NCBI GenBank assembly: GCA_050250895.1
Contig: JBFWNU010000001.1
Span: forward strand, 3,616,149 to 3,680,148
DNA: 64,000 bases
Reading direction: 5' to 3'
Source of the DNA: Vulcanimicrobiota bacterium
GTDB taxonomy: Bacteria > Vulcanimicrobiota > Xenobia > Xenobiales > JADMJV01
Shown: piece by piece, positions 18,019 through 45,241 of the stretch
Position numbering within the stretch: the stretch's first letter is position 1
How the letters are laid out: every line of letters begins with the position of its first letter
Position numbers and translations under genes: made by a program
Notes under the pieces: generated by a model
Told to the model about the DNA's origin: nothing
The model's database searches: none
Seen by the model: the letters and a program-made list of their open reading frames with translations, nothing else

Positions 18019-18512
18019 ATGGATCGGGACATCGTAGTCATTGGTGGTTCCGCGGGAAGCCTGACGGCACTTCGCGCCTCCTTTCCGCCTTGAATCCCGA
18101 CTACCTCGGAATGATCGCCATCGTCACCCACACAGGCGACGAGCATCAGACTCTACTGCCCAATATCTTGGCGCGCCACTGCGTGCTGCCGGTAGTAGAG
18201 GCCACCGATGGCCTGGCGATCCAGGCCGGACGGGTCATGGTGGCTTCTCCGGGCCATCACTTGATGACTCGCTATCGTTGTCGTACCGGCCATGTTTTTA
18301 CCGAGTTGTCGTTGGCGATGGAGCAGGACGTGGCGGTCGAGAGTTCTCTTTGGGCCGCCTTACGAGGGCTGGAGGAGGGGGCTGACTTGGCCTTGCAAAT
18401 GAGCCAGCGGGCGTCCTTTCAAGGCACACCTCGGGCCGGAGAGGCCCACCTGCGCCACCACGAGTTGACCGAGCACGCTCGCAATCTCAGAGCTGTGCTC
18501 GAACGACTTTAG
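18019..18512 (+). pseudogene. cheB: CheB-type methylesterase pseudogene (frameshift plus internal deletion)
   Basis: MDRDIVVIGGSAGSLTAL, then a frameshift near 18075 into IAIVTH...LPNILAR...PGHHL fused directly to the C-terminal RYRCRTGH...ESSLWAALRGLEE; the catalytic Asp region is missing. Confidence 0.8.
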
Positions 18513-21367
18513 GTGGCCTGGGCCGGTTCGAGCCTCACCAACAGATGATAGGAATTCGCCACCGGTTGCTTGTGCACTTTGACTTGATAGCCGGCCGATG
18601 GGCTCGCTTGGGTGGTATTCCAGGTGAAGCTGAAGTCGCTGTCGTTTGAGCAGCGTTCGGCCAATCGAGAGGCCAGCTCCGAGGCCGCTCCCCAATCGGC
18701 GAGCCGCCAGGGCGAGTCGCCACTTCGGGCTGGCCGAGGTGCGAACTCACGAAAGAATGCAGAGTTGTATTCCAGAATCCGCTGGCCATCGTCGACCACC
18801 AGCAAGGGAGACGTGACCTGTTCGAGCAGCCACTGATTCAACTGATGCCGTTCCTCGGCCAACCGCGTGGCCTTTGTCTTCTCGTCAACATCCACAAAGG
18901 CGATGACCACTCCGTCGATGCGGGCGTCCTCGGTCCGGTAGGGCCGGATCTGGATAGAATAGAGCCGCCCCTGATTGTCTGTCTGTTCGAAGCTGAAAGG
19001 CATCAAGGACTCGGTCACCTGCTCGATGTGGTGCTCTAGTTCGAGTAGTTCAAGGTTGGGACGGACCTGGTTGAAGGGGCGCCCCACGTCACCCGGAATG
19101 AGATTGAGTAGCACGCGGGCAGTAGGCGTAAAGCGGCGAATGACCTGGTTGGAATCGAGAATGACTACCGGGACATCCACACTGGTGAGAATGTTGTTCA
19201 GATCGCCATTGACCCGATGCAATTCGAGGTTGCGTTCGTGAAGCTCTTCGTTGATCGTCGCCAATTCTTCATTGGTAGATTGCAGCTCTTCCTTGGCTGT
19301 TTCGAGTTCTTCGTTCGCGCTTTGCAGCTCTTCGTTGGCCGACTGGGTTTCTTCGTTGGCGGCCTTGAGTTCTTCGTTGGCGGTCTCTCGTTCTTGAATG
19401 ATGGAACTTAGATACTCTCGTGTGGCTAGCAGTTCGTCACGCAGATAGAGGACCTCGCTCTCCTCCTTGGGTAAGGGGAGCGCCGGATCCGGCGGGCCAG
19501 ACAAGCCAGCCTGGGGGCGGGCCTCTTCAAAAAGGATAAGCAGATATTCTTCGCGGGAGTCAAACAGCCGAATGGGCAACACCTGCAGGTTGAGATGGCG
19601 AAAGCCACCGTTGGAGCGAACCTGAATCTCGGGGATGCAGACCGGTGACTGACTTTCGCGGGCTCGGGCTACCGCCTCGCGCAAGGGCCCGAGCAAGCCT
19701 TCGCGGGCCATCTTCAAGATGTCGTGAGTGGCTACCCCCGCTGCCGGTTCGAGATAAAGACCGGTGCGTCCCCGAAACTGAACCACTTCGAGATTGTCGT
19801 TGATGATCACTCCCGGAGGGGCATACCGCGCCAGGATCAGACGATCGGCCTGCTTTTGGACCTCGTAGCCATCGTCCCGTGATACGTTCTGAGTACTGAG
19901 AGGATAGAGACTGGGCGAGGCAGTCCGCGACGGCGCGTGCAGATCCATCAGCGGAGGGGTGGGCACTCCTTTGCGCCGATACACCTTCAGCTTCTTGTCG
20001 ACGGTGCTAAAGAGCGTCTCGCAGCGGGTGACGCTCTCGGATTTGCCCAATAGTAAATAGCCCCCCGGCCGGAGGGCGTAGTGCATACTCTCGAGAGCCC
20101 TACGTTGAAGAGTGGGTCCTAGATAGATCAACAGATTGCGGCAACTGATCAGGTCGAGATTGGGAAAGGGCGGGTCCCGGGTCACGTCTTGTCTGGCGAA
20201 GACGCACATGTCGCGCACGGTTTTGCTGATCTGATAACCCTTCGGCGTCTTCATGAAATAGCGGCGATAGCATTCAGGCAGGTTCTCGACCACGGCATCT
20301 GGATATCGACCGGCCCTGGCCTTGACCAGGGAAGACTCGTTGAGGTCAGTGGCAAAGATTTGCATCCAGGCTGTCTGCCGTCGTTCTCGCAAGATTTCGA
20401 GCAGCACGATAGCCAGAGAGTAGGCCTCGTCACCGCGCGAGCAGCCCGCCACCCAGATTCTCAGCGAGTCGGTTGCTCGACTCTCGAGCCAACGCGGCAA
20501 GATATCTTGGCGCAGCCCATCGAAGACATCCTGGTCGCGGAAGAGTTCGGTCACGTCGACCAGGAGTTCTTCGTAGAGGACGGGCACCTCCGAGGGATCG
20601 CTGCGGAGCAGTTCGTAATACTCTTCAAACGAACTGGCTTGACGCATCAACAGGCGCTTGATCAAGCGACGGCGGATGGTGGTGGCTTTGTAGCCCGAAA
20701 AGTCTACTCCGGCGGCGCGGGCCACAAACCGAAAGATATCGGCCAGCACCTTGGGATCGTTGGCGAATTCGTCATTTTGGGGATCGCAACTGGAGAGGGG
20801 ATGACCCGCCAGGCGGGCTACCTCGGCGGCCAGTTCGAGGGGCGTGAGGGCCAGATCCACGTAGCCGGTCGCGAGGGCATGGCGGGGCATCTCGGTGAAC
20901 TGGGCGCTGCCTTCGTGCTGTACCAAGACGATGCCGCCTTCGGCGTGAACCCCGGCAATGGCCTCGCTGCCGTCGCTGCCCGCGCCGGACAGTAGGATGA
21001 TGATGGTTCGGCTGCCAAAGGCGCCAGACAGGTTGCGAAAGAGGTCGTCCATGGCACTGGCCGTTGGGGGTGGAGCCACCGGCTCGAAGAGGTTATCGCC
21101 GTCAATCTGCAGGCTCAGGCCCTCGGGCACCACCAGGACGAGCCCTGGCTCGAGTTGGCACGATTCTGAGGCTAACTCGATTCGTTGCTGAACCTGTTGG
21201 CTCAACCGAGCGCGCAGTTCGTCACTGGATAGACCTCGAGAAGCCACCACATAGCACACATTCAAATCAGGATCGACGTGGCGGAGAAACTCGACCAGGG
21301 GCTCGCTGCCCCCCTCGGCCAGACCGACACCTACCACCAGGGGAGTGGCGGTCGGCTCGTTTTGCAT
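18509..21367 (-). CDS. CheB-CheR-PAS fusion protein (degenerate CheB, no kinase domain)
   Basis: LSGAGSDG, GVDFSGYK..TI.RR, RIWVAGCS.GDEAYSLAI, IFATD, DPPF..LDLISCRNLLIY, ANEELQS coiled coil, PAS IRRFTP..GDVGRP. Confidence 0.92.
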   Translation of the reverse strand: MQNEPTATPLVVGVGLAEGGSEPLVEFLRHVDPDLNVCYVVASRGLSSDELRARLSQQVQQRIELASESCQLEPGLVLVVPEGLSLQIDGDNLFEPVAPPPTASAMDDLFRNLSGAFGSRTIIILLSGAGSDGSEAIAGVHAEGGIVLVQHEGSAQFTEMPRHALATGYVDLALTPLELAAEVARLAGHPLSSCDPQNDEFANDPKVLADIFRFVARAAGVDFSGYKATTIRRRLIKRLLMRQASSFEEYYELLRSDPSEVPVLYEELLVDVTELFRDQDVFDGLRQDILPRWLESRATDSLRIWVAGCSRGDEAYSLAIVLLEILRERRQTAWMQIFATDLNESSLVKARAGRYPDAVVENLPECYRRYFMKTPKGYQISKTVRDMCVFARQDVTRDPPFPNLDLISCRNLLIYLGPTLQRRALESMHYALRPGGYLLLGKSESVTRCETLFSTVDKKLKVYRRKGVPTPPLMDLHAPSRTASPSLYPLSTQNVSRDDGYEVQKQADRLILARYAPPGVIINDNLEVVQFRGRTGLYLEPAAGVATHDILKMAREGLLGPLREAVARARESQSPVCIPEIQVRSNGGFRHLNLQVLPIRLFDSREEYLLILFEEARPQAGLSGPPDPALPLPKEESEVLYLRDELLATREYLSSIIQERETANEELKAANEETQSANEELQSANEELETAKEELQSTNEELATINEELHERNLELHRVNGDLNNILTSVDVPVVILDSNQVIRRFTPTARVLLNLIPGDVGRPFNQVRPNLELLELEHHIEQVTESLMPFSFEQTDNQGRLYSIQIRPYRTEDARIDGVVIAFVDVDEKTKATRLAEERHQLNQWLLEQVTSPLLVVDDGQRILEYNSAFFREFAPRPARSGDSPWRLADWGAASELASRLAERCSNDSDFSFTWNTTQASPSAGYQVKVHKQPVANSYHLLVRLEPAQAT

Positions 21368-21422
21368 ACACCATCATTAGCCGCGGGTTTGGAAGCACCT
21401 CTTTGGAGGGAAATCTTCCAAT

Positions 21423-24008
21423 ATGGTGCGAAACCAGACCTCTGATTTCACCCTGTCGGTGGCGCTGGCGGTCTCTCCTACTGCTGTCGAGCCTCTGCTG
21501 ACACTACTTCGGCGCTGGCCCGTCGACAACAGGGTCCAACTTCTGCTCCATGGTCTCCCCTGGGATCCCGAACCCAGCACTCCCTGGCCGGTACGCTACC
21601 TGAACGCGCCGGTCCGACCCCTCGGGGGACACCTTTACCTGGCCCATCCCGAACAGCCAGTTCGGTTCGAGAACGGCGTGACGCTCATGTTGGGCGAACC
21701 GGTGGGAATGCCGGTCGACACCCTGTTCGCTTCTCTGCCGGGCCGTCAGACGTTGGCCTGCGTCATTGGCGATCTCGGCATCGATGGCCACGAGGGCCTC
21801 AAAGCTTTACGCCGTCGAGGCGGGGTGATCGTCGCCTGCGATGGCGGCAAGAGAGTCCATCCCGCCATCCGACAACTGGTGGATCGGATGATCTCCATCG
21901 AGCAGCTACCGGGCCTGCTCCAACAACTTCTCTTCGAGAAGGAGAGCACCGAGGATATGGCCAGAGTGCGGGCAGCCGGGCCGTGTTCGACCGTGGTCGC
22001 GGACGATCTGTTCGGTCGCGTTTTGTGGCGTCGGCGAGCTCTGGCTGGCGGCCTTTCGGTTCCTGAATACATCGCTCTCTTGGAGGGCCCCTCCGAGCGT
22101 GAAGAGCTGAGTCTCGAGCTGGAACGGACACCGGGTCGGTTTTGGCGTCACCCCCAGCCACTCGAGCGACTCGCCTCGGTCTTGAAGGACCGGTTTGCCC
22201 GCCAGGGGCCCGGCGAGTTCCGGGCCTGGGTGCCGCAATGCCACACCGGTGAGGACGCCTACGCTGTGGCCACCATCCTTCGAGAAGCACTCGACCAGAC
22301 CGGACTGGCACAGGTCCCCTTACGGGTCTTCGGCACCGACCTTGATCCCCGGGACCTGACCCGAGCTCGAAGCGGACGCTTGGAGGTCGAGCCAGACCTG
22401 ATCGAACAGCTACAGGTGTGCTTGCCCCACCTGGAGGGGGGAGCGCAGGGATGGCGGCTGGGGGGGCGACTGAGGGAATCCTGTGTATTCTCGGTTCATC
22501 ACCTGCTCGACGATCCTCCCTTTCGGCACCTCGACCTGCTGGCTCTACCCGGGTTGGCGAGTTGCGGTGAGACCCTGCAAGCTTTGTTGTTGCCCCTATT
22601 GCGATGGGCTCTCAAGTCCGACGGGCTCTTGTTCACCGGTGAGGCCAGCCCGGCCGAACTGGAACAGTTCATCGCCGTAGACGGTCGGGCCGGAATCTAC
22701 CGACCGCTGAGTCGCGATCGGCGCATTTCCTCGGTTCTTCCCCTCAAGTGGACCAGGGTGACCGCTGGAGGTCCGATGGTGGATGGCTCGACCACCGAGC
22801 ACCTGGATTGGGCCATCGAAGAACTCACCAGCGCCCGGGACCGCCAGGCTCGTCTCGACGAGAGCCTTCAACTGAGAGTGGGGCAGCTCAGACAGACGCG
22901 CCAGGACCTGCTCGCGGCCAACCAGCAACTAAAGCGTGAAGCCGAAGAAAAAGACCGCTTCATCGCAACTTTGGCCCACGAATTGCGCAATCCCCTGGCG
23001 CCTATCGTGAACTGCTTGCATCTCCTGGCCGAGGGGCACATCGAGGACCAGACGGAGTTTGTCGATATGCTGGGTTCTCAGGCCCGTCACCTCTCGCGAC
23101 TGGTGGATGACCTGCTCGATGTCTCTCGCATGCAGAGGGGGATCTTGCCTGTCGAGCTCGAGCCCCTGGAGCTGCGCTCGCTGGTGATTGAGGCTGTCCG
23201 TCTCTGGACCCTCAGTGGCCGTCGGCGCGGACCGGTCAGGCTGCAGGTGACCGAAGAGGAGTTGCCCGTGTTGGCCGACCAGGAACGCATCAAGCAGGTT
23301 CTCTATAACTTGCTCAACAACTCGGCTTCGCATAGCCCCAGTGAAAAGCCGATTGTGGTTAGCTTGGAGATGGACGACCGCGAAGCGGTGCTGTCGGTGA
23401 TAGACTACGGAAGCGGTATCCCCCAGGCGATGATCGACAAGATCTTCGAACCGTTCGTGCAAGCCGAAAAAGGCCGCGACCGAGCGCTGGGAGGACTGGG
23501 AATCGGCTTGTCGTTGGTCAAAGCCATCGTCGAGCGCCACCAGGGAACCATCGCTGCCGAAAGCCCTGGCGAAGGTCTGGGGACCACCATGACCTTGCGT
23601 CTGCCGGTCCGCGACTTCAGCCTGCCCCAAAAGCAAGAGCAAGAGGTCGTTGTCGGCCATCGGACGCACCGGGTGTTGCTGGTCGAGGACAACCCGATCG
23701 TGGCCCGTTCTACCATCATGATGCTTCGATCTTGGGGCCACGAGGTTTGTCACGCCCGCGATGGGGAAAGCGCGTTGGTCCGAGCCAGAGAGTTTCTTCC
23801 GACCGCTGCTATTCTCGATATCGGCTTGCCAGGCCGAGATGGCTATCAAGTCCTCGAGGATCTGTTGACCATCGATGATGTCGAGTTCGAGACGACGGTG
23901 GCCTTGAGCGGCTATGAGGCCAGAAGCGATCCACGCTGCCAACTGTTCGACCATTACATGACCAAGCCCGCCAAGCTGGAAGTGTTGCGCGCGATCCTGG
24001 CGCGTTAG
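21423..24008 (+). CDS. Hybrid sensor: degenerate CheB/CheR - histidine kinase - receiver
   Basis: RAWVPQCHTGEDAY, VFGTDLD, DDPPFRHLDL; H-box LAHELRNPLAPI, NLLNNS, DYGSGI, IFEPF.Q, GLGIGL; REC LLVEDN, LDIGLPGRDG, KP. Confidence 0.92.
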   Translation: MVRNQTSDFTLSVALAVSPTAVEPLLTLLRRWPVDNRVQLLLHGLPWDPEPSTPWPVRYLNAPVRPLGGHLYLAHPEQPVRFENGVTLMLGEPVGMPVDTLFASLPGRQTLACVIGDLGIDGHEGLKALRRRGGVIVACDGGKRVHPAIRQLVDRMISIEQLPGLLQQLLFEKESTEDMARVRAAGPCSTVVADDLFGRVLWRRRALAGGLSVPEYIALLEGPSEREELSLELERTPGRFWRHPQPLERLASVLKDRFARQGPGEFRAWVPQCHTGEDAYAVATILREALDQTGLAQVPLRVFGTDLDPRDLTRARSGRLEVEPDLIEQLQVCLPHLEGGAQGWRLGGRLRESCVFSVHHLLDDPPFRHLDLLALPGLASCGETLQALLLPLLRWALKSDGLLFTGEASPAELEQFIAVDGRAGIYRPLSRDRRISSVLPLKWTRVTAGGPMVDGSTTEHLDWAIEELTSARDRQARLDESLQLRVGQLRQTRQDLLAANQQLKREAEEKDRFIATLAHELRNPLAPIVNCLHLLAEGHIEDQTEFVDMLGSQARHLSRLVDDLLDVSRMQRGILPVELEPLELRSLVIEAVRLWTLSGRRRGPVRLQVTEEELPVLADQERIKQVLYNLLNNSASHSPSEKPIVVSLEMDDREAVLSVIDYGSGIPQAMIDKIFEPFVQAEKGRDRALGGLGIGLSLVKAIVERHQGTIAAESPGEGLGTTMTLRLPVRDFSLPQKQEQEVVVGHRTHRVLLVEDNPIVARSTIMMLRSWGHEVCHARDGESALVRAREFLPTAAILDIGLPGRDGYQVLEDLLTIDDVEFETTVALSGYEARSDPRCQLFDHYMTKPAKLEVLRAILAR

Positions 24009-24604: not shown

Positions 24605-26026
24605 CTAGAGCACGAGATCGGTCAAGCAGTTGCTCCATTCGAGAAGGCACGAGGGGAAGAGCCCGAGCAACAGGGTCGCCAGCGTGCAGGCCCCACAGGC
24701 CAATTGATGACCAATCCCCGTGTGGATGGGTATCGGCAGAGTCGGCTGGTCGGTCAGATAGACTCGGGACAGCACCCGCAGGTAGTAATACAGGCCGATG
24801 GCCATGTTGATGACGGCTACCACAGCCAGGCTGTCGTAGCCGCCGGCCATGGCCGCCCGCAACAGAAAGACCTTGCCGGCGAAGCCAGCCAGAGGGGGGA
24901 TGCCAGCCAGCGAAAGCAGAGCGATGGCCAGCACGGCGGCCGCTGCCGGGCTGTTCCAGGCCGCGCCCTCGAGGACTTCGAGGTCAGCCTTGCCGAAGCA
25001 TCGTTCCCAGCGCCCGACAATTGCAAAGGCAGCCAGGTTCATGAGTAGATAGGCGCCCAGATAGTAGCCCACGGCCTGGTTGTCGAGCACGACCACCCCC
25101 ATCAGGATATAGCCGGCCTGGGCGATGCTCGAATAGGCGAGCAGCCGTTTGAGGCTGGTCTGTCGCAAAGCTGCCAGATTGCCCCAGGTCATGGTCAGGC
25201 CGGCCATGACCGCCAGGGCCACTGGCCAGCCGGGCTGGTGGCGCAGAGCTAGTTCGAGAAACCGTATCAGTCCGGCAAAGCCAGCCAGTTTCGGCAGCAC
25301 CGACAGAAATCCGGCTACGGGAGCAGTAGCGCCAGCATAGACATCCGGCGCCCAGAAGTGAAACGGCACCAGGGTGGCTTCGAAGGCATAGCCGACCGTC
25401 ACCAGAGCTACGGCCAGCACCACCCAGATCGGTTCGATTTGTCCGGCCCAGAGAACGGTCCCGATGGTGACCAGATTGAGGCTGCCGGTCAGACCATAGA
25501 GGAAGGTCAACCCGTAGGCCATAATGGCCAGCGCCACGGCCGAGTAGATGAACAACTTGTAGGTAGCCTCGTTGCCGGCCCGACTAGTGCGCTCCAGGGC
25601 CACCATAAGATAAGACGCCATCGCTAATAGCTGAAGGAAGAGGACAATCAGGCCGAGGTCCACGCTGGCCGCCAGTCCGACCCCGCCAAGAGTGGCCATG
25701 ACCAGAGCCACCGGTGCGTGCGGGTGCGGGTGGCGGCCCGAGAAGTACGAATCCATCAGAGCCAGCGAAATCAAGGCCGCGCCGGTGAGTAACACCTTGA
25801 ATCCAATGGCTAGCCCGTCGACGGCATAGGTTCCGCAGAACACCTGTCGCGAAGGCTGGCCCACCATGACCAGGCTGGTCGCCATGGCCGCCGTCAAACC
25901 CGCGGCTGCGACCCAGGTGGGCAAAGCCCGTCTCTGCTTGGTCCAACCGGCTAGCGGTACCAGCATCAGGGCGGTGGTGGCCAGAATCAATTCGGGCACG
26001 ATGGTGCCCAGGTTCATACAGCTCAT
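24605..26026 (-). CDS. nuoN: NADH-quinone oxidoreductase subunit N-like antiporter subunit
   Basis: IVPELIL, VPFHFWAPDVY.GA, LPKLAGF, KRLLAYSSIAQAGY, LAGIPPLAGFAGK, YYYLRV; ATG 26026 overlaps the nuoM stop. Confidence 0.93.
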   Translation of the reverse strand: MSCMNLGTIVPELILATTALMLVPLAGWTKQRRALPTWVAAAGLTAAMATSLVMVGQPSRQVFCGTYAVDGLAIGFKVLLTGAALISLALMDSYFSGRHPHPHAPVALVMATLGGVGLAASVDLGLIVLFLQLLAMASYLMVALERTSRAGNEATYKLFIYSAVALAIMAYGLTFLYGLTGSLNLVTIGTVLWAGQIEPIWVVLAVALVTVGYAFEATLVPFHFWAPDVYAGATAPVAGFLSVLPKLAGFAGLIRFLELALRHQPGWPVALAVMAGLTMTWGNLAALRQTSLKRLLAYSSIAQAGYILMGVVVLDNQAVGYYLGAYLLMNLAAFAIVGRWERCFGKADLEVLEGAAWNSPAAAAVLAIALLSLAGIPPLAGFAGKVFLLRAAMAGGYDSLAVVAVINMAIGLYYYLRVLSRVYLTDQPTLPIPIHTGIGHQLACGACTLATLLLGLFPSCLLEWSNCLTDLVL

Positions 26027-27465
26027 CCGCCAGCCCCGCCGATCAGGCCCAGCCAGGTGGCCGGAAGCAGTCCGATCCAGAGTGAGAGAAGCAGTAGCGG
26101 AGCCAGGGTGGCCCACTCCAGGGGCCGGGGCGCGGCGATGGCTCTTTCCGACTCGGGTTCCTGCAAAAGCAGGGTGACTACCACCTTCAGGTATAGACCG
26201 GTGGCCAGCAACAGGCCCAGGGCGCCCAGGCAGGCCGCTGCGGGATTGACGGCCAGGGTGGCTGCCAGCACCTGGAACTCGGCAATGAATCCTGACAGGC
26301 CGGGCAGGCCAAGCGAACCAAAGGCGAGCAAAGCGGTCAGGCCTCCCCAGCCCGAGCGTCCCCGCAGAAGACCGGCCAGCTCGGACAATTCGCGGGTGCC
26401 GGTGCGCTCTCTTAGCATGCCCACCAAAAAGAACATGCCTCCCGTCAAAAGGCCATGGCTGAAGGTCTGCAGGACAGCCCCGTTGCGAGCCAGGGTCTGC
26501 ACCGCCGGGTCGGGGCTCAAAGCGGCTGCCGAAACTCCCATCAAGACGAAGGCCATATGCCCGATCGAGCTATAGGCTACCAGGCGTTTGAGGTCGGTCT
26601 GTCCCAGGGCCGCCAGAATGCCGTAGAGTAGAGACCCCACGCTCAGATACAGCAGGGCCAGGGCCCAGCTTCGCAAAGCCGCGGCCACCGTGGGCAAGAT
26701 CACCAGCATGCCGTAGGCCCCCAGCTTGAGTTGCAAGCCGGCCAGCACCACGCTGCCTTCGGTCGGAGCCTCGACGTGAGCGTCGGGCAACCAGTTATGA
26801 AGAGGTAGGATGGGCAGCTTCACACCAAATCCCACCATCAATCCGAGCAACACCACAGCGGCTCTGGCGGGGTGGTCAGCCAGGGGTTGAGCCGCCACGA
26901 TGGCGTCAAGCGAAAAGCTGCCCACCGGCAGCGCCAGGGCGAGCAACGAGAGTAGCATGGCCAGACTGCCGGCTCTGGTGTAGAGAAAGAACTTCAGGGC
27001 CGCATAGCGTCGCTGGCTGTGTCCGAAGATGCCGATGACGAAGTACATCGGCACCAGGGCCACCTCGAAGAAGAGATAGAACAGCAGCAGGTCGCGGGCA
27101 CAAAAGACGCCGAGTAGACCGGTTTCCATCAAGAGGAAGAGAGCAGCGTGGGTGCGAGCCCGCTCCGGTTGGCGGTCCAGTCTATAATTGATGACCAGCA
27201 CCATTAATAACGTGGTGAGCAGGACCAGGGCCAGGGAGATGCCCGACAGGGCCACATCGTAACGCGCCCCCACGGCCGGGATCCATTCGAGGGTCTGGCG
27301 CCACTGCAGACCCTGACCTCGGGTCTGGTACCCTCCCAGGAGGATCAGGCTCAGAGCGGCTGTCAGGACGGTGCCCAGCAGGGCGAGCCACCGGGCCGCA
27401 CGCTCCGGAAAGGCGAGCACCAGCAGGGCCGCCAGCAGCGGCAGAAAGATCGTCAGACTCAACAT
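26023..27465 (-). CDS. nuoM: NADH-quinone oxidoreductase subunit M-like
   Basis: DLLLFYLFFEVALVPMYF, ALKFFLYT, VKLP..PLHNWLPDAHVEAPT, DLKRLVAYSSIGHM, GLPGLSGFIAEF. Confidence 0.95.
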   Translation of the reverse strand: MLSLTIFLPLLAALLVLAFPERAARWLALLGTVLTAALSLILLGGYQTRGQGLQWRQTLEWIPAVGARYDVALSGISLALVLLTTLLMVLVINYRLDRQPERARTHAALFLLMETGLLGVFCARDLLLFYLFFEVALVPMYFVIGIFGHSQRRYAALKFFLYTRAGSLAMLLSLLALALPVGSFSLDAIVAAQPLADHPARAAVVLLGLMVGFGVKLPILPLHNWLPDAHVEAPTEGSVVLAGLQLKLGAYGMLVILPTVAAALRSWALALLYLSVGSLLYGILAALGQTDLKRLVAYSSIGHMAFVLMGVSAAALSPDPAVQTLARNGAVLQTFSHGLLTGGMFFLVGMLRERTGTRELSELAGLLRGRSGWGGLTALLAFGSLGLPGLSGFIAEFQVLAATLAVNPAAACLGALGLLLATGLYLKVVVTLLLQEPESERAIAAPRPLEWATLAPLLLLSLWIGLLPATWLGLIGGAGG

Positions 27466-27478
27466 CGATAAACTCCTC

Positions 27479-29245
27479 TCATAACCAGAAAGTCGCTCCC
27501 AGCACGGCCGCTAGGGTCCAGGCGAATAGCCCGGCCACATAGAGATATAGCTTGCCGTTCTGGAGCTGACCCAGGCCCTTTCCGGCCACCGCCAACTCGA
27601 AGGCACCGCGGTCTACCCAGTGGCGCCACAATCGGCCGTCCACCGCCCCGGCAAATTTGGCCGTGCCGAGGGTGAGTCGGCCCAGCAGACGGCTGGTGCC
27701 GTCGAAAGCTTTCTCTGTCCCGACCTCGAAATAGCCGCCAGACTGTACCTTGCGGGCGGTCCAGACGGCGGTCTCGGCCAGAATGTGCTCGCACCAACCG
27801 GCCGCTCGGGCCAACATCGTGGCCGCTCTGGCCGTGCCCCCGGCAGCCTGTTGAAGGCCGGTGGCCAACCAGCCAAAAGGTTGAGGGGCCGCCCCCAGCC
27901 CGGCCCCTCCGACCAGCCCGGCTAGACCGCAGGCCGGGCCCGCGAGCTTGAGCCACAAAGGGGTGGGGGGATGGCCGGCGATGGCCGGGCCGAGGCCGGT
28001 GGCGGCCGCCGCCAGGATCAGGGCGGGAAGACTGCGCCCCAGGCCCGGACTTTCGAAGGCTCTCGAGCCCTGGCTGAAGAGGGTTCCCAAAAGGCGGCCC
28101 ATGTAGACACCGGCCAGCAGGATCAGCAACAGCATCAAGCCCGGCCAGGGCGCGCCCTGGCGGTGAGCCAGCGCGAGGATGCGGTCTTCGCTGAAATAGC
28201 CTGAGAGAGGGAAGATTCCGGCCAGGGCCAGCCCGGCTAACAGCATGGCTACGCCGACCATGGGCAGGCGTCGCCCCGCGCCGGCCAGCTTGCCCAGGGA
28301 GCGGGTACCCCCGGCGTGCTCCAGGCACCCGGCCCCTAAGAACAACGCCCCTTTGAAACTGCCGTGGGCCAGCAGGTGGGCGATTGCCGCGGCCGGGCCG
28401 GCCAGCCCCAGGGCCACCATCATCTCGCCTAGTTGGGAAACGGTCGACCAGGCCAGAATTGCCTTGAGATCGTCGGCCGAGGTGGCTGCCAGCGCCCCAA
28501 CCAGGGCTGTGGCCGCCCCCAGCACGGCCAGCGGCATCAGCAACTCGTCTAAAAGTGCAGAGAAGCGCACCAACAGATAGACTCCGGCCGTCACCATGGT
28601 GGCCGCATGCAGCAGGGCCGAGACAGGTGTCGGTGCAGCCATGGCTTTGGGTAGCCAGGAGGAGAAGGGCAGCTGAGCGCTCTTGCCCAGAGCTGCCAAC
28701 ACCAGCAGCCCGGCCAACAGGCGCGAACCGGGGGGGATGGCGGCCATCTCGGTGGTTTGGTACTGGACCAGCGCGTAGGCAAGGCCTAGCAGCAAGCACA
28801 GGTCGGTGGCCCGGGTCATCAGCAGGGCCTGGCGAGCGGCCGCGGCCGAACCGTAGCCGATCAGCATGAACGACGCGAGCCCGACTGCCTCCCAGGCGAA
28901 AAAGAGCAGCACCGTCGAGCCTGAGAGAAAGAGCAGCGCCATGGCCCCCACAAAGAAGGATAACCAGCCGTAGAATCCGCTGCTGCTATCGTCCTGGGCT
29001 GCGTACACGGCTACCAGCAGCGCCACTCCAAAGAGTAGCAGCAGCAGGCTGCGGGCCAGGGGGTCTAAGGTCAGGATCAGTTCCAGGTCGAATCCCGACA
29101 CCGAGAACCACAAAACCCTCCAATCGCTGTCGGGCAGAGCGGCCAGACCGAGCAGGGCCAGACCACTGGCCACCGGCAGGGCCCAGCGGTGGCGCACCAG
29201 GGCCGCCACCCAGGCCAGAGCTGGTAGAAGCCACAGGCTGGTCAT
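27479..29245 (-). CDS. nuoL: NADH-quinone oxidoreductase subunit L-like
   Basis: FAWEAVGLASF.LIG, GKSAQLPF..WLP.AM.APTPVSALLHAATMVTAGVYL, HGSFKGALFL, QLQNG.LY.Y; ATG 29245. Confidence 0.95.
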   Translation of the reverse strand: MTSLWLLPALAWVAALVRHRWALPVASGLALLGLAALPDSDWRVLWFSVSGFDLELILTLDPLARSLLLLLFGVALLVAVYAAQDDSSSGFYGWLSFFVGAMALLFLSGSTVLLFFAWEAVGLASFMLIGYGSAAAARQALLMTRATDLCLLLGLAYALVQYQTTEMAAIPPGSRLLAGLLVLAALGKSAQLPFSSWLPKAMAAPTPVSALLHAATMVTAGVYLLVRFSALLDELLMPLAVLGAATALVGALAATSADDLKAILAWSTVSQLGEMMVALGLAGPAAAIAHLLAHGSFKGALFLGAGCLEHAGGTRSLGKLAGAGRRLPMVGVAMLLAGLALAGIFPLSGYFSEDRILALAHRQGAPWPGLMLLLILLAGVYMGRLLGTLFSQGSRAFESPGLGRSLPALILAAAATGLGPAIAGHPPTPLWLKLAGPACGLAGLVGGAGLGAAPQPFGWLATGLQQAAGGTARAATMLARAAGWCEHILAETAVWTARKVQSGGYFEVGTEKAFDGTSRLLGRLTLGTAKFAGAVDGRLWRHWVDRGAFELAVAGKGLGQLQNGKLYLYVAGLFAWTLAAVLGATFWL

Positions 29246-29550
29246 CCCGATAGCTCCGAGAACTTGTCGATCTGCACGGTGCGTCGATTGCGATAGAACA
29301 ACATCATCAAAGCCAGTCCCACGCCCATTTCGACGGCTCCTACGGTGACGATGACGATGGTGAAGATCTGCCCTGAATAGTCGCCGGGATTGACCAATCT
29401 CCAGAAAGCGACCAGGTTGAGGCCGATGGCATTGAGCAAGACCTCGATACCCATCAAGATCATGACGGCGGTCCGCTGGGCTAGCACGGCGTACACGCCG
29501 ATACCGAACAGGATGGCCCCCACCACCAGATAAGCGGTCAAGGGGATCAT
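29242..29550 (-). CDS. nuoK: NADH-quinone oxidoreductase subunit K-like
   Basis: ILFGIGVYAVL, MGIEVLLNA, GQIF, GAVEMGVGLA. Confidence 0.95.
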   Translation of the reverse strand: MIPLTAYLVVGAILFGIGVYAVLAQRTAVMILMGIEVLLNAIGLNLVAFWRLVNPGDYSGQIFTIVIVTVGAVEMGVGLALMMLFYRNRRTVQIDKFSELSG

Positions 29551-30197
29551 GAGGTGATCTCCGGAGGCGGCTCGTCGACTGCCACATAAGCTTCTCGACT
29601 GGGGTCATCGGGATGGCTGGTGGGTCGAGCCGCGTAAACAGCGCCAAAGATGCCCGTGAGGATCAACAGCCCCGCACCTTCGAACCCGAGCATATACTTG
29701 CCCATCAGCAAGTTTCCCACTTGGCGAGGAGAGTCGAGGTCGGGCCGCTGATCGCGCACGGGGAAGGCGGGTTTCCAGAGGAGCAGGATCGTCAGGCCCA
29801 TCGCGCTCAACATCCCCATCCAGGCCGCTGGCTGCTTGATGGGCGTGGTCATGCTCATGTCCATATCCATATCTCCCTCGTGCTCGGACGGCTTGATTCC
29901 GAGACTGAAGAACCTTTCGACCGGGTTCATCTCCATGTCGGCCATCATCGCCCCTCCAGGGTCCCCCGAGAACAAGACCATGTAGAGGATCATCACCAGC
30001 ATCCCCCCGACGTACATCATGACCTGCAGCAGCGCCAGCAGGTCGGCCTGGAGAAGCACGAACAGGCCTGCCACGCCGATAAAGGAAGCCATTAGAAAGA
30101 TGCCGCTCCGAAACATGCTCATGGTCGTTGCCATGCCGAGGGCCCCGGCGATGCTAATCAGAGCGCAAACCACGAAGGCTACCCATTGGAACGTCAT
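29547..30197 (-). CDS. nuoJ: NADH-quinone oxidoreductase subunit J-like with Met/His-rich loop
   Basis: LFVLLQADLLALLQVMMYVGGMLV, YMLGFEGAGLLIL; ATG 30197 overlaps the nuoH stop. Confidence 0.9.
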   Translation of the reverse strand: MTFQWVAFVVCALISIAGALGMATTMSMFRSGIFLMASFIGVAGLFVLLQADLLALLQVMMYVGGMLVMILYMVLFSGDPGGAMMADMEMNPVERFFSLGIKPSEHEGDMDMDMSMTTPIKQPAAWMGMLSAMGLTILLLWKPAFPVRDQRPDLDSPRQVGNLLMGKYMLGFEGAGLLILTGIFGAVYAARPTSHPDDPSREAYVAVDEPPPEITS

Positions 30198-31090
30198 GCT
30201 GGACCCACTCCTAGTAGAATGAGGCCCCCTACCACCAGCACGTTGACCAGGCCGATGGGAGTGAGAACCTTCCAGGACAATTCCAGCATACGAGCCGTGC
30301 TCAGAGGTTGAAATTGGCGACCGAGCCAGACCATCAGGGCGGCCATGGCCAGAGTTTTGAGCACCATCCAGAGCCAGCCCGGCAGCACGGGGCCAAGCCA
30401 GCCGCCCAGAAAGAGGACGGCCCCCATGGCCGCAACCACGAATAACAGGCCCGCTAAGGAGAGCTTCCACATCAAGGCCTTCCAGCCCCCATAAAGGGGC
30501 AGCAGGCCGTGATCGATGGTGCCCGCCAAAGCTTCTTGAAACGGTGCCCGAAAGCATTGCATGAGTCCCGTGACCAGGTAAAGGGCAAACCCGATCGGCT
30601 GGAGTAGGAGGAAGGGAAGTTGGCGCTGAGCTTCTACGATGGCGACGGTCGAGAGACTTCGGGCCATCATGATGGCCCCGATATAGGCCAACCCCAGCGG
30701 AACGACATAGGCCACCAGTTGAGCGGTGGCCCGATAATAGACCTCGACCCCGTTCCTCTGATTGGTGCCCCAGCCGCCCAGGGAAAGACCCAGTACGAAG
30801 ATGTCCACCACCACCAGAAAATAGAACACGCCGATGGTCAAGTCGGCCACTACCAGGCCGGGTCCGAAGGGAATGACCACGGCTCCCAGAGCCACGGACA
30901 TCAGCGCTAGAATCGGGCCGGCGGGATACATCCAGCGGTCGGCCCTGTCCGGTTGCTGATCTGGAGAGAGTTGAATGGAGGTAGCCGGTCCAGGGTCGGC
31001 GTGGGCCGGCAGCAGGCGCGTTTCGAGCCACCCGCAGGCCAGTGCGCCGAGCGCCAGGACCAACAGGGCGGTGAGGGCGGGTCCGATCAC
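30194..31090 (-). CDS. nuoH: NADH-quinone oxidoreductase subunit H-like (divergent, short)
   Basis: VIPFGP, DLTIGV, GGWGTN, RATAQLVAY, QPIGF, RAPF, LFLGGWLGP, SWKVLTP; GTG 31090. Confidence 0.9.
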   Translation of the reverse strand: MIGPALTALLVLALGALACGWLETRLLPAHADPGPATSIQLSPDQQPDRADRWMYPAGPILALMSVALGAVVIPFGPGLVVADLTIGVFYFLVVVDIFVLGLSLGGWGTNQRNGVEVYYRATAQLVAYVVPLGLAYIGAIMMARSLSTVAIVEAQRQLPFLLLQPIGFALYLVTGLMQCFRAPFQEALAGTIDHGLLPLYGGWKALMWKLSLAGLLFVVAAMGAVLFLGGWLGPVLPGWLWMVLKTLAMAALMVWLGRQFQPLSTARMLELSWKVLTPIGLVNVLVVGGLILLGVGPA

Positions 31091-31404
31091 TCCCACCGAA
31101 GACCCCCCTGGCCCCAGGCGTAGGCGATGCCGGCCGAGAGAATGGCGATGAAGACCAGCATGTCCAGAAAAGCGCTCACCCCGATGTCGGCGAAGACCAC
31201 TCCCCACGGATACATGAAGATCATCTCCATGTCGAAGGAGAGAAAGATGAGAGAAAAAACGACGAAGCCGAAACGGTAGTTCTTCCAGGCCGGGTCTGGC
31301 TCGGGATGCTTGACCTCCCAGCCCGACAAAGCGGCTGCCAATAGCGCCAGTCCGGCTACCATCAAGATGACCATGGCGACGACGGCGTAGTGGTGAGAGA
31401 GCAT
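31087..31404 (-). CDS. nuoA: NADH-quinone oxidoreductase subunit A-like
   Basis: IFLSFDMEMIFMYPW, AYAWGQGGLRWE; ATG 31404. Confidence 0.9.
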   Translation of the reverse strand: MLSHHYAVVAMVILMVAGLALLAAALSGWEVKHPEPDPAWKNYRFGFVVFSLIFLSFDMEMIFMYPWGVVFADIGVSAFLDMLVFIAILSAGIAYAWGQGGLRWE

Positions 31405-31411
31405 CCTCTCG

Positions 31412-31469
31412 ATCCTAGAGGTGAGGGGAAAGCCCCGTCCGCATCGGGTGGGATGGGACCGGGGCATCC
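31412..31469 (-). promoter_or_regulatory. Putative regulon promoter of the nuo-like operon (perfect GGAT-N11-ATCC + TAGGAT -10)
   Basis: Box 31451-31469 (GGGATG...CATCCC), -10 31412-31417, gap 33 bp, ATG 7 nt after the -10. Confidence 0.75.
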
Positions 31470-31482
31470 CCGAGTTCGGATC

Positions 31483-32020
31483 CTACGCTTGTTGTCTGCC
31501 CGCGACGACTCGTCCATCTTTAGAGGGATGGTGGACCGCCCCTGAGGTCGACCCCGCCGGGGGGGAATTGTAGACCATGGTGCGATGGGTGTGGGCGGCC
31601 ATCGCCTTTTCTACCCCTTCCGGAAACAGCTTATGAAAGGCCATCGCGACCTTGCCCGCGCCTCCCACCACGACTTCCGGCTCAGGGTCGAAAATCAACT
31701 GTGGTGGTCGGCCACTGGCACGTCTTCAAAGCGTCCCAGAGCGGACACCCCTGCATTGTTGATCCAGACATCGATATGGCCAAAACGTTGCATGGCCGCC
31801 CCGGCCCGGGCCTCGACCTGCTCGGGACGACTGACGTCGGTGGGGACGGCCAGCGTCTGTCCTCCGCGCCGCTGGCACTCGCGCGCGATGTCTTCTAACG
31901 TGTCGTGACTGCGGGCGGCTAGAACCTGGGCTGTAGTTCGGCCAGCTTGAGGGCGGCGCCTTCGCCGAAGCCGCTAGAGGCGCCGGTGATGACCACGGTT
32001 TTGTTGTTAAGATCCTTCAT
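31483..32020 (-). pseudogene. SDR family oxidoreductase pseudogene
   Basis: MKDLNNKTVVITGASSGFG, frameshift near 31925, VLAARS...IDVWINNAGV...stop, then a C-terminal fragment; the YxxxK catalytic segment is deleted. Confidence 0.85.
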
Positions 32021-32945: not shown

Positions 32946-34166
32946 CTAGCCAGTGGTGGCTTCGAGTTCGGATTGAACCTGCGATGTTCGGCGCATGGCT
33001 TTGGGGTCGAGCACCGTCTTGATGCACCCGTCGGCCTTTTCTGAAAAGCGCTGATAAGCCTCGGCGGCGTTCTCGAGCGGGTCGCGATGAGTGATAAGGA
33101 AGGTCGGGTCGATCTCGTTGGCCTGGATCTTCTCGAGCAAAGGCTTGAGATAACGATGAACATGGGTCTGTCCCATTTTCAGGGTCAAGCCTTTGGCGAA
33201 GGCCGCTCCGAACGGCAGCTTGTCCAGCATCCCTCCATAAACGCCCGGGATGGACACCACGCCCCCCTTGCGGCAGACCTGCAACGCCTGACGCAAGACA
33301 TTGGGGCGGTCGGTGGCCAGATGCAAGGTGTCCTTAACGTGGTCATAGATAGCGCCCGGGCCAGTGCCGTGAGCCTCCAAACCGACAGCGTCGATGCAGG
33401 CATCGGGACCGCGGCCGCCGGTCAGCTCGGGCAGCCTGGTGAGAGGGTTGTGTTGATTATAATCGACGGTGATGGCGCCGATGGTGTTGGCCAGTTCTAG
33501 GCGTTCGGGCACGCTGTCGATGGCGATGACCCGCTCTGCCCCTAGCATCTGGGCGCTCTTGATGGCGAACAGTCCCACCGGCCCGCAGCCCCAAACAGCG
33601 ATCGTATCGCCATCCCGAATCGAGCAGTTCTCGGCGGCCTGGTAACCGGTGGGAAAGATGTCGGATAAGAACAGAGCCTGTTCGTCGCTGATCCCTTCGG
33701 GCACCTTGATGGGACCCACATCGGCATAGGGCACCCGGACCAGTTCGGCCTGGCCTCCGGCGTAGCCCCCGAGCAAATGCGAATAGCCGAACAAGCCTGA
33801 CGGTGAGTGGCCGTACACTTTATTGGCCAGAACGACGTTGGGGTTAGAGTTGTCACACAAAGACCACAGGTCGCGTTCGCAGAAGAAGCAATTTCCGCAA
33901 GCGATGGTGAAAGGCACCACTACCCGGTCTCCCTTCTTGAGGCGACGCACGTTCTTGCCGACCTCGACTACCCGTCCCATGAATTCGTGGCCGAGAATAT
34001 CTCCGGTCTCCATAGTGGGGATGTAGCCGTGATAAAGATGCAGATCCGAACCACAGATGGCGGTCGCGGTCACCTCGATGATAGCGTCACCAGGGTTGAG
34101 GATCTGCGGGTCGGGCACCGTTTCTACCCGAACGTCTTTGACCCCGTGAAAAACTAGCGCTTTCAT
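32946..34166 (-). CDS. Zinc-dependent alcohol/formaldehyde dehydrogenase (YbdR/FdhA-like)
   Basis: ICGSDLH, GHEFMG, CGNCFFC...[26 protein letters not shown]. Confidence 0.95.
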
Positions 34167-38427: not shown

Positions 38428-38485
38428 GTATGCCCTGCCCTAACCCGGTTGGGTGTTGGCTCGCGGGCTTCGCGGTTCCTACGAT
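38428..38485 (+). promoter_or_regulatory. Putative regulon promoter (degenerate GTAT-N11-ACCC + TACGAT -10)
   Basis: Box 38428-38446, -10 38480-38485, gap 33 bp. Confidence 0.55.
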
Positions 38486-38509
38486 GAGCAGACGGAAGGA
38501 GCTGCACCT

Positions 38510-39550
38510 ATGAGTCAAGTGGTAGTCATTACCGGAGCGAGCGCCGGAGTAGGCCGGGCCACCGCCCGCCGCTTCGCCCGGGACGGGGCCCGTCTGGGGC
38601 TCTTGGCGCGCGGCCAAGTGGGACTCGAGGCTACTCGGCGGGAGGTAGAGGAATTGGGAGGGCAAGCCCTGGCGATTTCCACCGACGTTGCCGATTATGC
38701 CCAGGTCAAGCATGCCGCCGAACAGATCGAGGAGCGATTCGGTCCTATCGACGTCTGGATCAATAACGCCATGGTCACCGTCTTCTCGCCCGTCAAGAAG
38801 ATGCAGGCGGAAGAATTTCGCAGGGTCACCGAGGTGACTTACCTCGGCGCCGTTCACGGCACGATGGTGGCCCTCGAGCACATGCAAAAGCGGGACCAGG
38901 GCGTGATCCTCCAGGTTGGCTCCGTTCTGGCCTATCGAGCCATTCCTTTGCAGTCAGCCTATTGCGGGGCCAAGCATGCCATCCAGGGTTTCAGCGAATC
39001 GTTGCGCTCGGAGTTGATGCACGACGATAGCGGTATCAGTCTCTCGATGGTGCAGCTTCCGGCCTTGAACACGCCGCAGTTCGAATGGTCGCGTAACAAG
39101 ATGGGTCAGAAGGCGCAGCCGGTTCCTCCGATCTATGAGCCCGAGGTGGCCGCCGAGGCGATTCACTGGGCCGTCAGCGAGACCCCCCGCGAAATGAGCG
39201 TGGGAATGCGTTCGAGTCTCATCTTGAACCTCAACAAATTCTTTCCCGGTGTGGGTGACAGGTACCTGGCCGAGAACGGCTACAGTTCTCAGATGCGCGA
39301 GGAACCGAGCGATCCCGAGCGAGCTGACAATCTTTTCGCGCCCATCGAACGGGACGCTGGCGCCAGAGGGCCTTTCAGTGACCGGGCGCGGGCCAGCAGC
39401 CGCCAACTGTGGGTCAGCTCTCACAAAGGCTTGCTGATGGCCGCCGCTGGCGCCCTGGCGGCCGGCACTCTGCTGGCCATCAAAGGCAAAAATGGAAAAG
39501 GAGAAGAGCTTCCTGATACCCGCTCGCCCGAAGCTCATCGAATACCATGA
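38510..39550 (+). CDS. SDR family oxidoreductase
   Basis: TGASAGVG, IDVWINNA, YCGAK, NTPQF; AAGGAG RBS before ATG 38510. Confidence 0.95.
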   Translation: MSQVVVITGASAGVGRATARRFARDGARLGLLARGQVGLEATRREVEELGGQALAISTDVADYAQVKHAAEQIEERFGPIDVWINNAMVTVFSPVKKMQAEEFRRVTEVTYLGAVHGTMVALEHMQKRDQGVILQVGSVLAYRAIPLQSAYCGAKHAIQGFSESLRSELMHDDSGISLSMVQLPALNTPQFEWSRNKMGQKAQPVPPIYEPEVAAEAIHWAVSETPREMSVGMRSSLILNLNKFFPGVGDRYLAENGYSSQMREEPSDPERADNLFAPIERDAGARGPFSDRARASSRQLWVSSHKGLLMAAAGALAAGTLLAIKGKNGKGEELPDTRSPEAHRIP

Positions 39551-44731: not shown

Positions 44732-45241
44732 CTAACGGCTGGCCTGAGAAGTCTGGATCTCTTTGACTTTGGCCAGGTGGGTGTTGAGGACGGGGGCGGT
44801 GTGGCTGAAGTAATCACGCAGGCTTTCGTGGGGGGCCGATTTGGCCTGTTGATTGTAGAAGTCGATGTCCTTTTGATGAGCTTTGGCCATGGCTTTGATA
44901 TATTCGCGGTCGAATTCTTCGCCCTGCAGGCTCGACAGACGGGCGTGGAGGTCCTTGTGCGCTTTGGTCTTGCCTTCGTTGAGCTTGACTCCGTGTTCTT
45001 TGGCCAGCTGCTTGACCGTCTCGTTGGCCTCGCGATGATCGTCGATGATGCGGCCGGCCAGTTGTTGGACCTCTTTGTCGTTGCTCTTCTTGAGGGCCAG
45101 ATTGGCCAACTCGATTTCGGCCCGGTTGCCTTCGTCGGCCTTGTGGATCAGCTTCTCGGTGGACAGGTGGGTATCGTCGGCCGCGGCCGCCCAAAACGGC
45201 ATGACGAGGGCGAGACAAACCAGGATGTAATGAACTCTCAT
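44732..45241 (-). CDS. DUF4142 domain secreted protein
   Basis: Signal peptide; AEIELANLA, V..LA..IIDDH, GEEFDREYIKAM..AHQK, P.L..HL. Confidence 0.9.
   Translation of the reverse strand: MRVHYILVCLALVMPFWAAAADDTHLSTEKLIHKADEGNRAEIELANLALKKSNDKEVQQLAGRIIDDHREANETVKQLAKEHGVKLNEGKTKAHKDLHARLSSLQGEEFDREYIKAMAKAHQKDIDFYNQQAKSAPHESLRDYFSHTAPVLNTHLAKVKEIQTSQASR

Follow-up and report, generated by a model that had tools for sequence, protein, structure and literature searches.

How a quinone-site event in respiratory complex I is coupled to proton movement ~200 Å away in the membrane arm is still debated, and a widespread natural arm that lacks redox subunits would reveal the arm's own capacity and provide a simpler system for structure determination and mutagenesis. 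Operons restricted to membrane subunits have been in print since 2012, when a 'partial NDH-1 operon' nuoAHJKLMN was described in marine actinomycetes and relatives (Penn and Jensen, PMC3314556); a 'NuoAHJKLLMN membrane arm' cluster is described in Nitrosococcus oceani (PMC3772326). We examined an operon of this kind in a 64,000-nt stretch of a Vulcanimicrobiota bacterium genome (the window; assembly GCA_050250895.1, contig JBFWNU010000001.1, positions 3,616,149 to 3,680,148 of the forward strand). An earlier annotation of the window, made from the letters alone (the first-pass annotation), had presented the operon as a new kind of system. Its novelty was overstated, since nuo operons of seven genes, all for membrane subunits, had already been published (PMC3314556, PMC3772326, PMC6676996). 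The operon belongs to a family that has lost the elements with which complex I seals its quinone cavity and that has a Met-rich NuoJ. With about even confidence, we read it as a stand-alone, proton-gradient-driven cation exporter made from a redox-free complex I membrane arm, the ion being, for the family, probably Cu(I) and possibly Ag(I).

Gene content and the lost quinone interface

The operon lies on the minus strand (24605-31404; an alternative nuoA start is at 31467) and comprises seven open reading frames (ORFs) in the order nuoA-H-J-K-L-M-N, all matching the corresponding Pfam families (E = 1e-18 to 2e-60; Table 1). Pfam assigns the NuoA, NuoH, NuoJ and NuoK families and three Proton_antipo_M proteins, which NCBIfam names NuoL, NuoM and NuoN. 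All subunits except NuoM (and NuoK for one model) score far under the NCBIfam equivalog cut-offs and are therefore very divergent copies. The tight packing reported in the first-pass annotation is confirmed from the ORFs, the Pfam matches and the listed start codons: 4-nt overlaps occur at A/H, H/J, J/K, K/L and M/N (five of the six junctions), and a 13-nt gap separates L from M. No gene intervenes at the A/H or H/J junction, and nuoB-G and nuoI are absent from the cluster. The direct abutment of nuoA on nuoH (without nuoBCDEFG) and of nuoH on nuoJ (without nuoI) holds both in the window and in related loci.

The assembly (9.5 Mb, 17 contigs) contains two further NuoH genes, each adjoined by NuoB and NuoD. 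One belongs to a 14-gene nuoA-N operon on contig 2, so that the separate complete nuo operon that was to be looked for is present. The other lies outside the window at contig C1:1095687-1106087, in an A-B-C-D-H-J-K-L-M-N locus from which nuoE/F/G are absent; no NuoI-type 4Fe-4S cluster motif was found within 22 kb around it, and its NuoH (410 residues) is extended at both ends. Because these two loci hold NuoB, NuoD and NuoH, the window cluster is a third, extra membrane arm, and the concern that it might be the genome's only one falls away. A third genome match to PF01058, considered as an orphan NuoB, was rejected as the small subunit of a soluble hydrogenase. At contig C1:2999-3001 kb, genes of the soluble NAD(P)-linked [NiFe] hydrogenase type encode an FAD/NAD-binding subunit followed by a NuoB-fold small subunit.

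We aligned the window subunits with those of 13 relatives and with the genome's two canonical paralogues. The loop between transmembrane helices (TM) 1 and 2 of NuoA is ~15 residues shorter than in both canonical copies, and the YECG-type motif is absent from the window and from all 13 aligned relatives. The loss of this loop and motif stated in the first-pass annotation is thus borne out, with the nuance that a HMMER alignment of the window NuoA to plastid NdhC is ungapped at the loop and places a Glu, not conserved in the family, at the motif position. NuoH retains TM1 with its conserved Glu, as well as the Arg of the TM4 region. The loop that follows TM1 is shortened by ~30 residues relative to the canonical paralogues, in agreement with the late start of the Pfam match, at profile position 59, and most of the N-terminal quinone-entry segment is indeed missing, as had been claimed. 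The Glu of the NuoH TM4 motif is Val or Ile in all aligned members, and the acidic TM5-6 loop has one Glu left. In the alignment to chain 7nyh_H, which we take to be the E. coli subunit, E157, D213, E216, E218, E220, D223 and E228 correspond to window V129, Q185, L188, a gap, T191, H194 and L199. The change reported at the E. coli E157 position and the replacement of the acidic loop are both seen here, the six acidic positions from D213 to E228 being non-acidic or deleted. Residue E71 of 7nyh_H aligns with Pro in the window NuoH.

In a review of complex I, E71 is listed as a partner of the NuoA loop, and the NuoA and NuoH loops enclose and seal the quinone cavity (PMC10212512). The losses of interface and cavity elements are far beyond chance and are conserved family-wide. 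The question whether alignment would recover conserved NuoA/NuoH interface residues has a clear answer, as these are lost in all 13-14 aligned members.

Residues of the ion-translocating machinery are mostly retained. NuoA keeps Asp58 and Glu60 in TM2, flanked by family-conserved Met59, Met61 and Met64. NuoK keeps both membrane glutamates (E36 and E74), and Met75 beside E74 is conserved in the family. In NuoM, none of the canonical Glu, Lys, Lys, His and Glu residues has been lost. NuoL retains Glu in TM5, Asp in TM6, Lys in both TM7 and TM11, and the His residues; its TM12 Lys is replaced by Glu (E353, corresponding to K385 of chain 4he8_L) in all 13 members. In NuoN (aligned to 6hum_B), Gln (Q132) takes the place of the TM5 Glu and Glu (E216) that of the TM7 Lys; both changes are invariant in the family, and the TM8 and TM12 Lys residues are retained. 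Invariance of the NuoL and NuoN charge changes was judged over 12-13 aligned members. Since these changes are invariant across the family, the pattern is that of a working, re-tuned ion translocator rather than of decay. For every subunit, the closest solved chains are from complex I or NDH; NuoL scores 182.5 bits against a solved MrpA chain and 186.1 bits against the best complex I chain.

Table 1. Subunit genes and altered segments of the operon in window coordinates. Positions of sub-features are derived from residue numbers and are accurate to about one or two residues.
Feature	Position	Strand	Evidence
nuoA-like, 105 aa	31087..31404 (longest ORF from 31467)	-	PF00507 E=1e-18, profile positions 30-99
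NuoA shortened TM1-2 loop, ~residues 27-44	31273..31326	-	family alignment; YECG-type motif absent
nuoH-like, 298 aa	30194..31090	-	PF00146 E=3.4e-46, match begins at profile position 59 of 298
NuoH shortened loop after TM1	about 30935..31012	-	family alignment
NuoH V129 (E157 in chain 7nyh_H)	30704..30706	-	alignment to 7nyh_H
NuoH TM5-6 loop, residues 183-202, single Glu	30485..30544	-	family alignment
nuoJ-like, 216 aa	29547..30197	-	PF00499 E=1.3e-25
NuoJ TM3-4 loop, residues 79-119, 41 aa, 8 Met, 1 His	29841..29963	-	short form
nuoK-like, 102 aa	29242..29550	-	PF00420 E=3.4e-22
nuoL-like, 588 aa	27479..29245	-	PF00361 E=9e-50; NF005141 covers profile positions 63-600 of 615
nuoM-like, 480 aa	26023..27465	-	TIGR01972 444 bits vs cut-off 263.8
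nuoN-like, 473 aa	24605..26026	-	alignment to 6hum_B; family alignment

A methionine-rich NuoJ and the metal-resistance contexts of the family

The first-pass annotation missed the most informative feature of the system, which is the Met-rich NuoJ together with the metal-resistance context of the family. Met makes up 10.0% of NuoJ compared with 3.3% of the canonical paralogues, and 6.8% of NuoA compared with 3.9%; the Met content of H, K, L, M and N shows no rise over the canonical paralogues. NuoJ has 19 family-conserved Met columns. In an alignment of 35 sequences, Met60, Met61, Tyr62, Met66, Met69 and Met73 of TM3 are invariant. Met66, Met69 and Met73 fall at i+4, i+7 and i+11 from Tyr62, and they therefore lie on one helix face running toward the cytoplasmic end.

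The NuoJ TM3-4 loop, which in complex I sits between the peripheral and membrane arms and touches the NuoA loop (PMC10212512), is bounded in the family by conserved Met-rich motifs: the start motif occurs in 120 of 120 homologues and both motifs in 108 of them. In those 108 the loop measures 40-195 residues (median 95) and consists of 13% Met, 8% His, 12% Asp and 14% Gly; Deinococcus NuoJ loops reach 205 residues. Short loops still hold 8-11 Met within 41-47 residues, and the TM Met ladder is invariant in the short- and long-loop groups alike. In an Anaerolineales metagenome-assembled genome (MAG; locus L015), the loop contains a Pfam heavy-metal-binding domain (HMBD; E=4e-14), and one of the 108 database NuoJ homologues has the same heavy-metal-binding motif in its loop.

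The window NuoH has more than 1300 database homologues, the best 120 of which are 58-81% identical; among these 120, full-length proteins have 291-307 residues and three are shorter fragments. The stand-alone nuoAHJKLMN family spans many phyla and plasmids at 55-80% identity, with a patchy distribution. We collected 16 loci from named genomes (Chthoniobacterales, Chloroflexota, Anaerolineales, Desulfobacterales, Actinomycetota, Thermoleophilia and two Deinococcus species with two copies each), 50 metagenome loci and three plasmid or megaplasmid records. All seven genes are present in order in 11 of the 16 genome loci, the remaining five being cut by contig ends; among the 50 metagenome loci, 26 have the full set and 22 are truncated in this way. 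The order A-H-J-K-L-M-N, whole or as a contig-cut portion, is found in all 16 genome loci, 49 of 50 metagenome loci and two plasmids. One metagenome locus (L075) is an assembly palindrome. The copy at L063:13259-13972 stops inside nuoM at ~residue 260 and is not followed by nuoN, although 6.9 kb of contig remain; its NuoH is identical to that of the Rhodopseudomonas plasmid copy. Projected gaps are at most 83 nt between A and H (57 loci) and at most 375 nt between H and J (65 loci), leaving no room for other nuo genes. The window shows the family features, with seven genes in order, a NuoH of ~300 residues and a Met-rich NuoJ with both loop-bounding motifs. In a tree of NuoH, a very long branch with support of 100% sets the 59 family rows apart from the two canonical copies of the genome, and the window NuoH itself has a rather long end branch (0.45).

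The NuoJ type is present in the source genome and in none of 40 other related genomes searched. Members of the family are carried by one conjugative and one mobilizable plasmid, and others stand beside integrase, transposase or relaxase genes, so the module spreads horizontally. An all-against-all comparison of flank ORFs from 16 loci and the window revealed no gene common to the flanks of all loci.

To characterize genomic context, ORFs within 6 kb of the operons were scanned against Pfam and the context classes were coded by hand. Forty metagenome loci with flank ORFs reduced to 31 contexts after near-identical ones were merged, and to 28 after removal of three uninformative ones. Strong copper or metal markers occur in 16 of these 28 independent contexts. 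The markers are P1B-type ATPases with HMA or HMBD, CsoR-type repressors, CopC-CopD, CopB, multicopper oxidase, PCuAC and SCO1, and further ScsC, DUF305, DUF326, DUF411, the PpoB2 copper chaperone and CDF. Such markers also accompany the module in named genomes: an Actinomycetota MAG has cupredoxin, CopC-CopD and CDF genes directly upstream, both Deinococcus species have DUF326 and DUF305 nearby, and a Rhodopseudomonas conjugative plasmid carries DmeF, two metal-sensing repressors and CusA/B, with a DUF305 gene directly upstream of the module. The copper-binding protein CopM is a DUF305-domain protein (PMC4335983). In the source genome HMA, DUF305 and CsoR markers occur at only five places in 9.5 Mb, which sets the rough chance expectation at a few percent and makes a chance association very unlikely. 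The metal association varies with NuoJ loop length: a strong metal context was found for 29 of the 40 scorable rows with loops longer than 70 residues (rows not de-replicated) and for none of the loci with shorter loops.

A sister lineage links a similar arm to copper genes. On a Sulfitobacter dubius plasmid (L079; NZ_CP136699, 9131-18358), nuoA is followed by a hypothetical gene, a gene for a 653-residue 'heavy metal-binding domain-containing protein' and nuoH-J-K-L-M-N. Its NuoH shows only 35% identity, and the cassette is flanked by a P-type ATPase gene on one side and multicopper oxidase/CopB genes on the other. Tn7-like and IS6 genes adjoin it, and similar matches at 35% identity occur on other Rhodobacterales plasmids. 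A copper cluster of Marinobacter atlanticus contains a nuo-like cassette co-expressed with cop genes (PMC8233155).

The short-loop loci form a well-supported clade plus the pair of the window and L010, its nearest relative, and on the NuoH tree they are nested among long-loop, metal-context forms. In short-loop members from Desulfobacterota-type MAGs (L011, L012, L014, L025 and L037), rhodanese-metallo-beta-lactamase fusions, rhodanese genes or YeeE-type sulfur-transport genes lie directly upstream, which hints at a sulfur-linked context for this clade; Hdr-like genes also stand beside some short-loop loci.

The window operon is surrounded by genes of general-stress type: DUF892, DUF1360, DJ-1/PfpI, glutamate decarboxylase, short-chain dehydrogenases (SDRs), ASRT and a Zn-dependent alcohol dehydrogenase (Zn-ADH). 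This dense run extends over about 13000-52000 of the window and also includes DUF72, luciferase-like, SRPBCC-YgaP, AI-2E transporter, DUF4142 and glycogen-debranching-like genes, a pyruvate-oxidase-like thiamine pyrophosphate enzyme and a K+ channel. The genome's only DUF305-scoring gene (44735-45241, minus strand) is 13 kb from the operon, and its best Pfam match is DUF4142. Directly upstream of nuoA lies an SDR remnant (31690-31998, minus strand) that preserves the N-terminal nucleotide-binding part and is then interrupted by a frame change and a stop ahead of the catalytic region; its intact paralogue is at 38453-39547. The Zn-ADH-type gene (32949-34166, minus strand) has counterparts near L010 (9910-10842, 61% identical, cut by the contig end) and directly upstream of the module at L036:1005-2213 (41% identical). 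Two very large, divergent CheB-CheR fusions occupy 18512-24005, one of 952 residues with PAS domains and one of 861 residues with histidine-kinase and receiver domains. A search for sigma-70-like sites gave none against 1.3 expected, and terminator-like sites numbered 8 against 6.6 expected. The best 7-mer common to upstream regions had 7 occurrences versus 5.0 expected from shuffles, which is not significant, and a search for RNA runs over 29000-31600 turned up none. The stress-regulon promoter suggested in the first-pass annotation thus gains no support from these scans; the stress-type character of the neighbouring genes is as that annotation had it.

Proposed function and alternatives

Gene content, the lost elements, the residues kept or altered, the Met enrichment, the HMBD insert, the contexts and the patchy distribution are observed; that the subunits assemble, which way they transport, what ion they carry and that the proton gradient drives them we infer from sequence. 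The seven proteins would assemble as a stand-alone membrane arm without a redox module and act as a secondary transporter. Protons would enter through the antiporter-like L, M and N subunits, and their inflow would push a cation out via the remodelled NuoH/A/J/K region, the former E-channel. On the cytoplasmic side, the NuoJ TM3-4 loop with its many Met and His residues would pick up a soft metal, which would move along the Met ladder on NuoJ TM3 to the retained NuoA and NuoK carboxylates. Cu(I) is suggested as the ion of the family by this ladder, the Met/His loop at the cytoplasmic face, the HMBD insert and the genomic contexts, with further support from the sister Sulfitobacter lineage among cop genes and from the co-expression in M. 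atlanticus. A more specific form of the proposal, which we put forward tentatively and at a little below even confidence, is that the E-channel has been rebuilt as a Met-lined Cu(I) path with the NuoJ 'sponge' loop in place of the peripheral arm, giving a seven-subunit, multi-proton Cu(I)/H+ antiporter. If so, several protons spent per ion could give a driving force comparable to that of an ATP-driven pump.

Several observations weigh against export of Cu(I). Eight of the 28 metagenome contexts contain no metal marker and four contain only MerR or RND/HlyD proteins; the hand-coded rows include many near-duplicates. None of 12 loci with loops of at most 70 residues has a strong metal context, and several of these short-loop loci adjoin rhodanese or YeeE sulfur genes or Zn-ADH. 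Two loci lie near Na+/H+ antiporter genes (NhaA at L021, Na_H_Exchanger at L022). The step from a Met/His-rich loop to Cu(I) draws on general background, such loops being a hallmark of Cu(I) sites, and not on a test made here. The window itself has the shortest form of the loop, 41 residues, and no metal gene within 6 kb of its operon. Because this copy combines a short loop with a stress-gene neighbourhood, a metal substrate is less well supported here than for the family at large. NuoD homologues, moreover, are present in 9 of 10 host genomes searched (the remaining one is a MAG of unknown completeness), so distribution alone is compatible with a borrowed peripheral arm.

The cation need not be a soft metal. 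A Na+(K+)/H+ antiporter of Mrp type that serves salt and pH homeostasis, the 'marine adaptation' reading, was proposed by Penn and Jensen for the Salinispora operon and its relatives (PMC3314556) and taken up in later genome papers (PMC6676996). The closeness of the two NuoL scores, the exchanger genes near L021 and L022 and the stress- or osmotic-type neighbours in the window, among them the K+ channel and sugar-handling genes, all fit such a role. It leaves unexplained the restriction of the Met rise to NuoJ and NuoA, the His/Met loop, the HMBD insert and the metal markers in 16 of 28 contexts, and the genome already has a probable Mrp-type cluster on contig 2 (weak tblastn matches only); we consider it rather unlikely. 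Another alternative, in which the arm docks a redox module from elsewhere (NuoB/C/D/I of other loci, or an unknown partner) and works as an alternative redox-driven pump, would draw on the presence of NuoB and NuoD at two further nuo loci of the genome, on the NuoD homologues of the other host genomes and on the NuoH TM1 Glu and TM4-region Arg. It is hard to reconcile with the family-wide loss of the NuoA TM1-2, NuoH post-TM1 and acidic TM5-6 loops, which build or seal the quinone cavity (PMC10212512), and with the NuoJ loop inserts at the arm interface, which reach about 205 residues. As the module moves on plasmids and across phyla, it would also have to fit foreign peripheral arms, and no conserved extra gene accompanies it. 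We regard this as quite improbable. Of the two roles offered in the first-pass annotation, the redox-uncoupled ion transporter stands as the best reading, and a conserved gene for an unknown partner was not found in the flanks.

A metal link confined to the long-loop branches would leave the short-loop forms with some other stress- or sulfur-linked transport or handling, or with a regulated proton path. Short-loop loci do stand beside rhodanese-metallo-beta-lactamase, YeeE-type, Hdr-like or Zn-ADH genes, the window and L010 share related Zn-ADH genes, and for the N. oceani 'membrane arm', a cluster matched to the family by description only, transcript levels in energised cells were 5-12 fold below those of starved cells (PMC3772326). 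Set against this are the density of Met in the short loops, the invariance of the TM Met ladder across both loop groups and the nesting of short-loop forms among long-loop, metal-context forms, and we think it unlikely. Least credible is the idea that the cluster is what remains of a complex I operon, is decaying and no longer has a function. The SDR pseudogene directly upstream and the rather long NuoH end branch would suit it, but none of the seven reading frames is broken and most are translationally coupled, family-specific residues are invariant at 55-80% identity across phyla, and more than 1300 NuoH homologues share the same length. Stand-alone export of a cation, probably Cu(I) in the family at large, thus remains the reading that we prefer. 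A natural redox-free arm of this kind would allow the long-range coupling of complex I to be studied directly. Were Cu(I) its substrate, it would represent a new class of metal-efflux machine, spread on plasmids alongside known copper-resistance genes, and the 'marine adaptation' reading would need correction, as would the label 'NADH-quinone oxidoreductase subunits' that these genes now carry.

Comparison with known systems

Like complex I (NDH-1), the window operon encodes all seven membrane subunits in canonical order and retains the NuoK and NuoA carboxylates and most of the Lys, Glu and His residues of L, M and N. Unlike complex I, the locus is without NuoB/C/D/I and E/F/G, the NuoA and NuoH docking and quinone-cavity loops are lost, NuoJ is Met-rich with a metal-type loop, and charges are altered in NuoL (TM12 Lys to Glu) and NuoN (TM5 Glu to Gln, TM7 Lys to Glu). 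Of the features expected of a complex I, the quinone-module subunits are not encoded alongside, NuoB and NuoD being found only at the two other genome loci; the NuoH/NuoA cavity loops are missing from the window and every aligned relative; and the three antiporter-like subunits and two NuoK glutamates are in place, bar the three family-invariant charge changes in L and N.

The likeness to Mrp (Mnh/Pha) lies in the proposed principle, by which antiporter-like subunits would expel a cation at the expense of the proton gradient without redox chemistry, and in a NuoL nearly as similar to the solved MrpA chain as to Nqo12. Mrp is established to lack NuoH and NuoA homologues, as the first-pass annotation also states. 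The window has both, and there are no MrpB/E/F/G genes at the locus. The mrpA-G set is not found, NCBIfam ranks the NuoL, NuoM and NuoN models over Mrp models, and M and N score as NuoM and NuoN rather than as MrpD. The claim that the cluster is neither a complete complex I nor Mrp therefore stands, given the interface loss in 13-14 members and the presence of NuoH and NuoA.

Among the closest described systems are the partial NDH-1 and N. oceani operons, with which the present family likely shares membership, matched by description and not by sequence. The partial NDH-1 operon likewise consists of seven membrane-only genes; it occurs patchily as a result of horizontal acquisition, Actinobacteria, Proteobacteria and Deinococcus being among its hosts, and its NuoJ is divergent enough to be annotated as hypothetical (PMC3314556). 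In the portions of these papers that were covered, the evidence comprises annotation, trees and one microarray, with Na+/H+ pumping proposed, and we found no residue analysis or link to metals. In the literature searched we found no functional study of the nuoAHJKLMN family, and no report of family-wide interface loss, a Met-rich NuoJ or a metal context that depends on loop length. The Sulfitobacter cassette, and probably that of M. atlanticus, resembles the family in being a redox-poor, complex-I-type arm among cop genes. The Sulfitobacter lineage differs in that nuoA and nuoH are separated by two additional genes, one annotated as encoding a heavy-metal-binding-domain protein, whereas the present family is capless and carries its metal-type region within the NuoJ loop.

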